17,908 nt of DNA from Bdellovibrionota bacterium FG-2 (GCA_051382305.1 JBBCAV010000156.1:1-17908); one strand, 5' to 3'; counted from the stretch's first letter, positions 4,229 through 5,786 are shown. Notes: a model not told the origin generated them from the sequence alone. Program-made: numbers and translations.

Positions 4229-4663
4229 ATGAAGAAAGGAATTATTGGAATTATGAATACTGAACTCGGTAAAGTTGTTGAGAATCTTAAAGCAGCGCAA
4301 GGGCGCCTTCAGAATTTGGTCAAGAATAAAGGCTGGATTGATGAGGCTCGTAAATACGCTGAAAAGCAGGGTAAAGAGGTAAAGAAGCTTCTTTCTGCAG
4401 ACGTCGGGAAGGTGAGAACTTTCTTGGAACGCGAGCGCAAAGAGCTGGAGCGTTTTCAAAAGTCTCTTCCTGGAGAAGTGAATAAGCTTCGGAAGCTTGT
4501 TGTTTCTCAGCGCAAGGAGTTTGAGAGTCTTTTGAAGAAAGTGAAGAAAGCGACAAAAAAGGGCGGAAAGGTCTCCAAGAAGGCTGCTCCGCACAAGAAA
4601 GTCGCCAAAGTAACTAAAAAAGGCAAAAGCTCAGCGGGTGCGTCGGCTTCTGCTGCGAATTAG
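4229..4663 (+). CDS. Hypothetical basic protein: helical/coiled-coil N-domain plus Lys/Ala-rich tail (PhaF-phasin or histone-H1-like architecture)
   Basis: Only + strand ORF filling the nadE-infC gap. Start is ATG 4229 or ATG 4253. The tail KKVKKATKKGGKVSKKAAPHKKVAKVTKKGK has 15 Lys in 31 aa and no acidic residue. Followed by a strong hairpin. Confidence 0.8.
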   Translation: MKKGIIGIMNTELGKVVENLKAAQGRLQNLVKNKGWIDEARKYAEKQGKEVKKLLSADVGKVRTFLERERKELERFQKSLPGEVNKLRKLVVSQRKEFESLLKKVKKATKKGGKVSKKAAPHKKVAKVTKKGKSSAGASASAAN

Positions 4664-4700
4664 CCGTCGAATTGGCGAGCTATAGAAGGTTTTGGTCTTG

Positions 4701-4732
4701 GTACCGCGGCAAAAGCAGAATTGCCGCGGTAC
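4701..4732. terminator. Perfect 12-bp inverted repeat; possible terminator or RNA-stabilising hairpin
   Basis: GTACCGCGGCAA-aagcagaa-TTGCCGCGGTAC, 37 nt after the stop at 4663. No classical U-tract on either strand. Confidence 0.55.
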
Positions 4733-4747
4733 TTAGCACCGGGTCAC

Positions 4748-4776
4748 TTGACACGGCGACAGACCTTCGGTATTCC
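4748..4776 (+). promoter_or_regulatory. Putative sigma70 promoter for infC
   Basis: Perfect -35 TTGACA (4748-4753), 17-nt spacer, imperfect -10 TATTCC (4771-4776). Lies just upstream of the SD GGAGGT (4789-4794). Confidence 0.6.
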
Positions 4777-4811
4777 TTAAGCGAAATTGGAGGTTTTTTA
4801 CTAAAAAACGA

Positions 4812-5483
4812 ATGAATTTTCCACCACCCTCAGGTTTCCCACCAGGCCCATCTTTTCCACGTCCTCGCTTTCCGCGAGCCCCCCTTGTAAATCCAAATAA
4901 AGACGAACATCGGATCAACGAGCGCATTCGTGTGCCTCAAGTTCGTTTGATCGACGAAGTCGGCGGTCAGGTCGGAGTTGTTCCAACTCACGCGGCGCTG
5001 CAAATGGCGCGCGATAAGGGTTTGGATCTCATGGAAGTTTCCCCAAACGCTTCCCCCCCTGTCTGTAAAATCTGCGATTACGGCAAGTTTAAGTACGAAA
5101 AGAAGAAAAAAGAGCACATAGCTAAGAAAAAGCAGACCGTCATCAAGGTGAAGGAAGTTCAGCTTCGCCCTCAGACGGATTCCCATGATCTTGATTATAA
5201 ATTCAAGAACGTCAGGCAATTCCTCATTGATGGGGACAAGGCTAAGATCACCATCATGTTCCGGGGCCGTGAAATCACTTATGTGGATCAGGGTTTTAGG
5301 ATGATGAATCAGCTTGTTGAACTTGTGAAGGATGTAGGGATGATTGAGGCCCCCCCTAAACTTGAAGGCAAGAAACTCATCATGGTTCTGGCTCCCGGTA
5401 CTGCCAAAAAGGCGGGTACGATCACGATTGGTCCGAAGATTATTATTACTCCAAAGAAGGATCCTTCGGAGACCCAAGGGTAG
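4812..5483 (+). CDS. infC: Translation initiation factor IF-3 with Pro-rich N-terminal and short C-terminal extensions; true start uncertain (ACT 4800 or ATG 4812)
   Basis: RINERIRVPQVRLID, GLDLMEVSPNASPPVCKICDYGKFKYE, VKEVQLRP, GDKAKITIMFRGRE. Upstream of rpmI-rplT. Confidence 0.97.
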   Translation: MNFPPPSGFPPGPSFPRPRFPRAPLVNPNKDEHRINERIRVPQVRLIDEVGGQVGVVPTHAALQMARDKGLDLMEVSPNASPPVCKICDYGKFKYEKKKKEHIAKKKQTVIKVKEVQLRPQTDSHDLDYKFKNVRQFLIDGDKAKITIMFRGREITYVDQGFRMMNQLVELVKDVGMIEAPPKLEGKKLIMVLAPGTAKKAGTITIGPKIIITPKKDPSETQG

Positions 5484-5551: not shown

Positions 5552-5585
5552 CCTTACCTTACAGAATCTAATAGGGGCTTTTACA

Positions 5586-5786
5586 ATGAAGATGAAGACT
5601 AAGAAGGCTGCCGCAAAGCGCTTTTCTTTTACAGCAACAGGTAAAGTCAAATTCAAGCGCACACATAAGCGCCACAATTTGGGTAACAAAAGTTCCGCTC
5701 GCAAGTTGAAATTGAGAGCGGGCGGGTATGTTTTCTCCGGCGACGTAAAACACGTCGAGGAGTGCTTGCCTTACGGTTCGCGATAA
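5586..5786 (+). CDS. rpmI: 50S ribosomal protein L35
   Basis: KMKTKKAAAKRF..TATGKVK....KRH.L..KS and C-terminal LPY. Canonical position between infC and rplT. Confidence 0.97.
   Translation: MKMKTKKAAAKRFSFTATGKVKFKRTHKRHNLGNKSSARKLKLRAGGYVFSGDVKHVEECLPYGSR

Follow-up and report, generated by a model that had tools for sequence, protein, structure and literature searches.

A distant Shine-Dalgarno-type site overlapped by a predicted hairpin in the AUG-start infC leader of an uncultured order of Bdellovibrionota

Introduction

The autoregulation of translation initiation factor IF3 through a rare start codon in its own gene is a textbook circuit, and the dsg gene of Myxococcus starts at an AUC codon. 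A passage on infC starts in PMC7797042 reads the AUU start of the E. coli gene and the ATA start of the Flavobacterium gene as autoregulatory. According to a review passage on IF3 selectivity, the factor discriminates against non-canonical codons and also against "too extended" Shine-Dalgarno (SD) sequences, the common denominator being a departure from canonical geometry (PMC4611024).

Two other described systems place a strong SD far from a start codon. In the T4 genes 38 and 25, SD-to-start distances of 22 and 27 nt are cut to 5 and 11 nt, respectively, by a hairpin that is conserved in close T-even phages, as described in the part of PMC3014915 that deals with these genes. In Bacilli, a strong SD at the 5′ end of an mRNA, or steric occlusion there, stabilizes the transcript even when no start codon follows, as set out in a passage of PMC3997798.

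Here, we analyze the leader of infC in a 17,908-nt stretch of DNA from Bdellovibrionota bacterium FG-2 (GCA_051382305.1 JBBCAV010000156.1:1-17908), hereafter called the window, and compare it with the infC leaders of related genomes and of further families of the phylum. All positions are counted from the first base of the window, and the features of the infC leader and gene lie on the + strand.

The infC locus and the comparison set

The genome that carries the window comprises 4.3 Mb in 433 contigs and is 85% complete, and those of its relatives that have names are metagenome bins of uncultured Oligoflexia, Bdellovibrionota or "Bacteriovoracaceae". The open reading frame at 4812-5483 encodes IF3 (223 aa; Pfam IF3_N 1.9e-32, IF3_C 2.7e-31), with a Pro-rich N-terminal extension preceding the IF3_N domain. 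It heads the gene row infC-rpmI-rplT-pheS-pheT, and sucD, ndk, nadE and a weak phasin-like open reading frame lie 5′ of it.

For the comparison, infC loci were taken from 40 related genomes (30 loci kept) and 80 more from a species collection; after duplicates and cut-off loci had been dropped, 78 distinct infC 5′ regions were left. The relatives with an SD-like word at most 45 nt from the infC ATG form the SD-bearing set (n = 50). As the relatives are not independent of one another, the counts given below overstate the number of evolutionary events.

Two further features of the region were recorded. A 13-bp inverted repeat at 4700-4733 (GGTACCGCGGCAA, an 8-nt loop and TTGCCGCGGTACT) sits between the stop codon of the phasin-like open reading frame (4663) and the TTGACA motif of the infC leader. 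This repeat is the main element of the local fold; it lacks a T run, and our scan did not report it as a terminator. Downstream of infC, a promoter-like sequence, CTTACA-N18-TACAAT, at 5558-5587 ends at the rpmI start.

The infC start codon

The start region of infC consists of GGAGG (4789-4793), six T residues (4794-4799), ACT (4800-4802), AAAAAAC (4803-4809), a GA linker (4810-4811), which corresponds to [C/A]GA before the ATG in most relatives, and the ATG at 4812. The SD-type site, GGAGGT, spans 4789-4794. The ACT codon is in frame with the ATG and lies 6 nt past the SD, the ATG lying 18 nt past it, and the arms GTTTTTT (4793-4799) and AAAAAAC (4803-4809) can pair as a 7-bp stem with ACT as its loop. 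These letters are as the initial annotation described them, and the similar context that it had pointed out at the ndk start (GGAGG, GATTTTTT, ATG at 1980) is also present.

Based on this layout, the initial annotation had raised the possibility that ACU is an unusual IF3-sensitive start codon, or that a base call at 4801 hides an ATT. The geometry suits this reading, since an in-frame stop occurs 20 codons upstream and the frame then runs open through the ACT to the ATG at 4812 (the translation across the start reads ...RFFTKKRMNF...), and sister families place ATT, ATC or ATA at a comparable distance from the SD. However, the comparison with relatives contradicts it. The ATG at 4812 is the earliest ATG, GTG or TTG in the open frame and is conserved: the N-terminus at the aligned ATG is M-A-[FILV] in 62 of the 78 non-redundant relatives, MAF in 48 of these, and MNF in the window and in a same-genus relative. 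The ACT is not conserved. Its position is occupied by CAC in the same-genus genome, where the GTTTTTT/AAAAAAC stem is intact, and by ACC in a groundwater DNA contig (X2; a single contig, depth 3.6) that is 95-99% identical over 4742-4930 and in which the T>C change at 4802 leaves both arms unchanged. A contig identical across the whole stretch (X1), which may be the one from which the window derives, reads ACT, which, together with the other bases found there in the two relatives, makes a miscalled ATT unlikely. Additionally, an in-frame stop separates the SD from the ATG in 20 of the 50 SD-bearing relatives, and an ATG, GTG, TTG, CTG or ATH codon that is in frame, open and 4-10 nt past the SD occurs in one of the 50. 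ACU also lacks the central U (PMC4611024).

Because the loop varies, stops intervene and the N-terminus is conserved from the ATG, we reject both initiation at ACT and a miscalled ATT, a pair of readings that we consider hardly credible. The alignment of infC 5′ regions thus upheld the ATG as the conserved element, but an ATT, ATC or ACT at the candidate position is not a property of the window's order. As judged by this comparison, infC is shown to start at ATG 4812, the ACT being only the loop of a small, predicted A/U hairpin. The headline of the initial annotation was wrong in this respect, but the hairpin that it had named as an alternative pointed to a real and conserved feature.

The distance between the SD and the ATG

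The distance from the SD core to the infC ATG is 13-33 nt in all 50 SD-bearing leaders of the order. In the matched control, rplT of the same loci, the SD lies 3-10 nt from the start in 58 of 59 cases and at 13 nt or more in none; the rpmI starts of 27 of 58 relatives have no SD-like word within 40 nt. Within the window genome, the distances from GGAGG to the first ATG peak at 4-9 nt (193 of 303), those beyond 13 nt match the background at internal ATGs, and the 18-nt distance itself, found at 6 sites, is at background level. The infC SD of the window, at 18 nt, is therefore not at the canonical distance from its true start, for which the genome norm is 4-9 nt, and it falls outside the working range, as do the SDs of the T4-type genes. 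It is the comparison with relatives, and not the window alone, that leads us to regard the long spacing and the hairpin described below as selected features; on that comparison, the wide SD-to-ATG gap is shown to be real, specific to infC and conserved across the order.

In a same-family genome, the 16S rRNA has the canonical 3′ end, GGATCACCTCCTT. The infC leader matches this tail over 6 contiguous nt in the window and over 8-9 contiguous nt in 18 of the 50 relatives.

A separate observation concerns a multi-copy gene family whose starts have a 13-14-nt match to the 16S 3′ tail (AAAGGAGGTGATCC), followed by 2-3 nt and the ATG. Its members have similar N-termini and are found in genome G000 on contigs C232, C236, C244, C342 and C417, at most 300 nt from the contig ends, and at 12 sites in G001. 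That the copies lie so close to contig ends points to a repeated element, which is possibly mobile.

A hairpin at the SD

The first base of the hairpin in the window (4793-4809) is the last G of the SD. We defined a stem as consecutive pairs starting at base 4 or 5 of GGAGG or at the next base, with a loop of 3-9 nt. By this rule, a stem of at least 5 bp is present at the SD in 33 of the 50 leaders and one of at least 4 bp in 40, compared with 4.0 ± 1.8 leaders having a stem of at least 5 bp (maximum 11) when the bases between the SD and the ATG were shuffled in 1000 trials. Such a stem accompanies 19% of all 7424 GGAGG sites in the genome. The stems occur as GGTTC/GAACC, GGTTTC/GAAACC, GGTTTT/AAAACC, GTTTC/GAAAC, GTTTTTT/AAAAAAC (the window's genus) and GTCGG/CCGAC, the last being an unrelated sequence that takes the same position in a single clade of five; they thus differ in sequence and length between clades, with loops of 3-9 nt.

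When a covariance model built on the common form of the element was run against 239 kb, all of its matches were infC leaders (35 of 78 loci at E ≤ 1); in the alignment to the model, 86.8% of the cells are paired. A covariance-model search of the genome returned no comparable element elsewhere; in the search with model R1, the infC site obtained an E value of 1.56 and three unrelated matches had similar scores, one of them an ordinary GTG start; the model is too small for scanning genomes. On the model-fitted alignment, no pair of the core stem is changed on both sides relative to the commonest type, the innermost pair alternates among C-G (12), U-A (8) and U-G (13), and pairing at the observed level also arises in 110 of 500 column shuffles. 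RNAalifold predicted no structure for the 42-sequence alignment of 106-nt leaders. In the window, the stem amounts to -2.4 kcal/mol, and the 48 nt at 4783-4830 fold no better than their shuffles (z +0.29; the fold is equalled or surpassed by 113 of 200 shuffles). Given that the alignment tests are negative, the support for the hairpin comes from the clade-level differences between stems and from the shuffle control. On these grounds, comparison across the order shows the predicted SD hairpin to be conserved.

Among the 40 leaders with a stem of at least 4 bp, 7 would keep an unpaired tail of 2-4 nt before the ATG after folding, as would the window (2 nt); the tail would be 9-10 nt long in another 17 and 16-22 nt long in a further 7. 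The other 10 of the 50 SD-bearing leaders have a long spacing (13-23 nt) and no stem of at least 4 bp. The initial annotation had suggested that the hairpin might act as an alternative control by shortening the distance between SD and AUG. The long spacing and the SD hairpin have indeed proved to be conserved; however, since the stem overlaps the SD and the remaining distance varies, simple distance shortening does not follow from this, and the suggestion is supported in part.

Two other pairing partners of the SD were considered. Pairing with the CCU-UCN codons of the Pro/Ser-rich N-terminus was examined by permuting synonymous codons and is rejected, as the natural sequences form poorer pairing between the SD and the early coding region than the permutations do (mean z +0.54; z > 1 in 16 and z < -1 in 3 of 50); such pairing seems, if anything, to be avoided, which would fit an SD that needs to be accessible. 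An anti-SD helix formed by an upstream CCTTC, seen in the minimum-energy fold, lies inside the spacer between the -35-like and -10-like hexamers described in the next section, and RNAalifold found no consensus structure in the 42 leaders.

A promoter-like motif upstream of the SD

A -35-like hexamer, TTGACA (4748-4753), is followed 17 nt later by a putative -10-like hexamer, TATTCC (4771-4776), 12 nt after which the GGAGGT site begins. In the 42-sequence alignment (A3), the first hexamer, TTGAC(A), is invariant or nearly so, and (G)GTAnnnC(T) follows it after 17 nt. The arrangement TTGAC[AT]-N16-18-TAnnnn followed by an SD-like word was found in 52 of the 78 leaders, with a 17-nt spacer in most. 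In 40 of these 52, GGAG follows the -10-like hexamer after a gap of 10-13 nt; the distance from the first G of GGAG to the ATG in the same leaders ranges from 19 to 102 nt (a count that starts 5 nt earlier than that behind the 13-33 nt given above). In five leaders that at first seemed to be devoid of an SD (L003, L009, L010, L067 and L068), the SD-like word keeps its usual place after the motif, 69-92 nt upstream of the ATG, and there is no proximal SD, so the AUG of these leaders must be found without that SD. They contain larger stem-loops, followed by an A-rich tail of 20-35 nt. The position of the SD follows that of the promoter-like motif, not that of the ATG.

Most of the -10-like hexamers end in C, which is atypical for sigma-70. 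Our promoter and terminator scan listed no site at the infC leader; it missed TTGACA/TATTCC because its rule needs a T at the last position of the second hexamer. The genome-wide base composition after TTGACA gave no signal for a local -10 consensus (TAnnnT at 28 and TAnnnC at 17 of 1323 sites). The one RNA run (X3), with under 90% identity, covers only 4904-4992, a conserved coding piece.

Three of the far-SD leaders also contain a short open frame just after the 5′ SD-like word, as read by eye, beginning with ATG at 2 nt (L003), ATT at 10 nt (L068) or ATC at 4 nt (L067). These frames may be due to chance or may be small leader peptides.

In general, the leader of the order is laid out as TTGACA-N17-TAnnnC, an SD-type site 10-13 nt further on, usually a short hairpin, an A-rich stretch and the AUG. 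By comparison with the other leaders, the GGAGG and the predicted hairpin of the window are shown to be its genus's version of this order-wide leader of uncultured Oligoflexia/Bdellovibrionota.

infC starts in other families of the phylum

We collected 40 infC 5′ regions from 12 further families and anchored 39 of them on the conserved domain. In 11 of these families (f14-f24), an in-frame ATT, ATC or ATA lies 2-9 nt past the SD in 36 of 37 loci, and 29 of the 37 have no ATG, GTG or TTG anywhere in the open frame upstream of the domain. These families appear to follow the classical infC design, with ATT, ATC or ATA as the probable start codons. A non-canonical start at a canonical distance, which the initial annotation had expected of the window, thus holds for other families of the phylum but not for the window's order. 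The remaining family, f13, contributes two loci that are similar to those of the window's order, one with an ATG 13 nt past GGAGG and the other with ATT and ATG at 9-15 nt. The former (L122, genome G041) belongs to a second lineage with an ATG-start infC; here, GGAGG is followed by an A/U stem, ATAAAA-CGC-TTTTAT, which extends into the ATG with its 3′ arm and resembles the stem of the window.

The promoter-to-SD arrangement was found in one of the 39 anchored regions, as a poor match. Judging by these regions, the arrangement is specific to the window's order.

The IF3 proteins of the order carry a Pro/Ser-rich N-terminal extension of about 20-95 residues before IF3_N (4812-4910 in the window; relatives L002-L110), an example being MAFIPSSPSSPS...FPRPRFPRGP. 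The families of the phylum with an ATT start have short basic tails in its place, and the Pro/Ser-rich extension co-occurs with the ATG design.

Proposed mechanism and alternative explanations

We propose that the order may have exchanged a weak, ATT-type codon for a strong AUG whose SD is far away, partly masked and often extended, and that this non-canonical initiation region would keep the synthesis of IF3 low. As IF3 rejects non-canonical geometry and over-long SDs, such a leader might still respond to the level of IF3, and the hairpin could tune both the amount of free SD and the effective distance between SD and AUG. We prefer this mechanism, a handicapped and perhaps IF3-responsive initiation region, because IF3 rejects complexes that are off geometry and because the AUU and ATA starts of infC are read as autoregulatory. 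That IF3 would sense the spacing is our extrapolation from the review's statement on extended SDs and geometry. The descriptive part of this explanation, taken as a whole, we consider very likely to be correct. The joint statement of leader features and mechanism comes close to being evenly balanced, with the scale tipping slightly against it, and the mechanism taken separately is tentative, with somewhat more room for doubt than for belief. In its most specific form, the feedback exerted by IF3 would, in this order, act on the geometry of the ribosome-binding site and no longer on the start codon, so that an AUG with an extended SD at least 13 nt away and a hairpin sharing bases with the SD is rejected by excess IF3 as AUU is elsewhere in the phylum; this form we regard as doubtful. 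Since pairing in the stems is weak (at 37 °C, from -2.4 to about -8 kcal/mol), the element could also raise the synthesis of IF3 in the cold, when the stem would close the gap.

The same leader could be a split ribosome-binding site of the type found in T4 genes 25 and 38, in which the hairpin loops out the spacer and enhances translation, with no link to IF3. The conserved phage hairpins are a precedent, SD hairpins are far commoner here than in shuffles, and 9-10 unpaired nt would remain before the ATG in 17 of the 40 leaders whose stem has at least 4 bp. However, the tail is inconstant, shrinking to 2 nt in the window and reaching 16-22 nt in 7 leaders; the large-insert leaders leave 20-35 nt after the hairpin, 10 of the 50 leaders are long without a stem of at least 4 bp, and the stem of the window is marginal. 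The stem also uses the last one or two G residues of the SD, so full pairing of the SD and formation of the stem would exclude each other. We therefore take the split-site reading as rather doubtful. A further reading is that the SD-like word near the presumed 5′ end is not the SD of the AUG and serves as a ribosome standby site or as a stabilizer of the mRNA, similar to the STAB-SD of Bacilli. A docked 30S subunit and the hairpin would then guard against 5′-end-dependent decay, and the AUG would be found in its A-rich context without an SD. The 10-13-nt gap between the -10-like hexamer and GGAG, seen in 40 of 52 leaders, agrees with such a role, as GGAG keeps its place over ATG distances of 19-102 nt, including those with the word 69-92 nt away, and a homologue of RNase J is encoded in the genome (RNase_J_C, 73.9 bits). 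Nevertheless, the mechanism is documented in Firmicutes and not in Bdellovibrionota, and it leaves unexplained why none of the 50 leaders has an SD at the canonical distance and why the sister families have ATT-type starts; we judge this reading unlikely.

Another reading places the signal in the DNA: the inverted repeat would be the operator of a dimeric repressor just 3′ of the promoter, and no RNA hairpin would form. Several relatives do have a perfect 14-bp palindrome (GGTTCTTAAGAACC) directly after the promoter-like motif. However, among relatives, the separation of the arms varies from 3 to 9 nt and their length from 4 to 7 bp, which is unsuited to a fixed spacing of half-sites, and the clade with GTCGG/CCGAC has an unrelated stem at the same place, so an operator seems very improbable. 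The split-site and stabilizer readings remain serious, and neither of them is incompatible with the other or with the handicapped, perhaps IF3-responsive region that we prefer.

Significance and comparison with known systems

Searches of open-access text on Bdellovibrio infC, split sites, infC autoregulation and IF3/SD spacing yielded no description of this leader. To our knowledge, what organisms with an AUG-start infC do is largely unexplored. The phylum offers a natural comparison, since most of its families combine ATT, ATC or ATA with a normally spaced SD, whereas one order, together with f13, combines AUG with a distant SD that usually bears a hairpin. If the AUG design senses IF3, it would show that IF3 proofreads the SD-to-start geometry in vivo and would offer an easy pair of reporters for measuring this; otherwise, it would illustrate how the output of an essential factor can be fixed at a low level. 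Either way, gene callers and readers should expect no near-cognate infC start in this order.

We consider the leader a variant of infC translational control and of split initiation regions and not a new category. It resembles the L20-dependent leaders, i.e., the attenuator of Bacillus and the rpmI operator of E. coli, in being a regulatory leader in an infC-rpmI-rplT operon. However, the element is about 30 nt long instead of about 200 nt, has no terminator and has no Rfam match: the window gave 0 matches at the gathering score, and the region 4550-5000 gave, at E ≤ 10, one irrelevant match on the other strand. With the STAB-SD of Bacillus, it shares a strong SD-like word near the presumed 5′ end, off the canonical distance, in a genome that has an RNase J homologue; the phylum is a different one, however, and in most members of the order this word is the sole SD-like word before the start. 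The likeness to T4 genes 25 and 38 lies in a far SD (18 nt here; 22 and 27 nt in T4) and in a phylogenetically conserved hairpin between it and the start, but here the gene is a cellular housekeeping gene across an order, the stem overlaps the SD, the tail ranges from 2 to 22 nt and some leaders are stemless. Finally, infC of the E. coli type, with AUU, or ATA in Flavobacterium johnsoniae, is the same gene in the same infC-rpmI-rplT-pheST context and also has an abnormal initiation region; unlike it, infC of the window has a plain ATG, and what is unusual is not the codon but the position of the SD, which in this order is no closer than 13 nt and lies partly in a stem.
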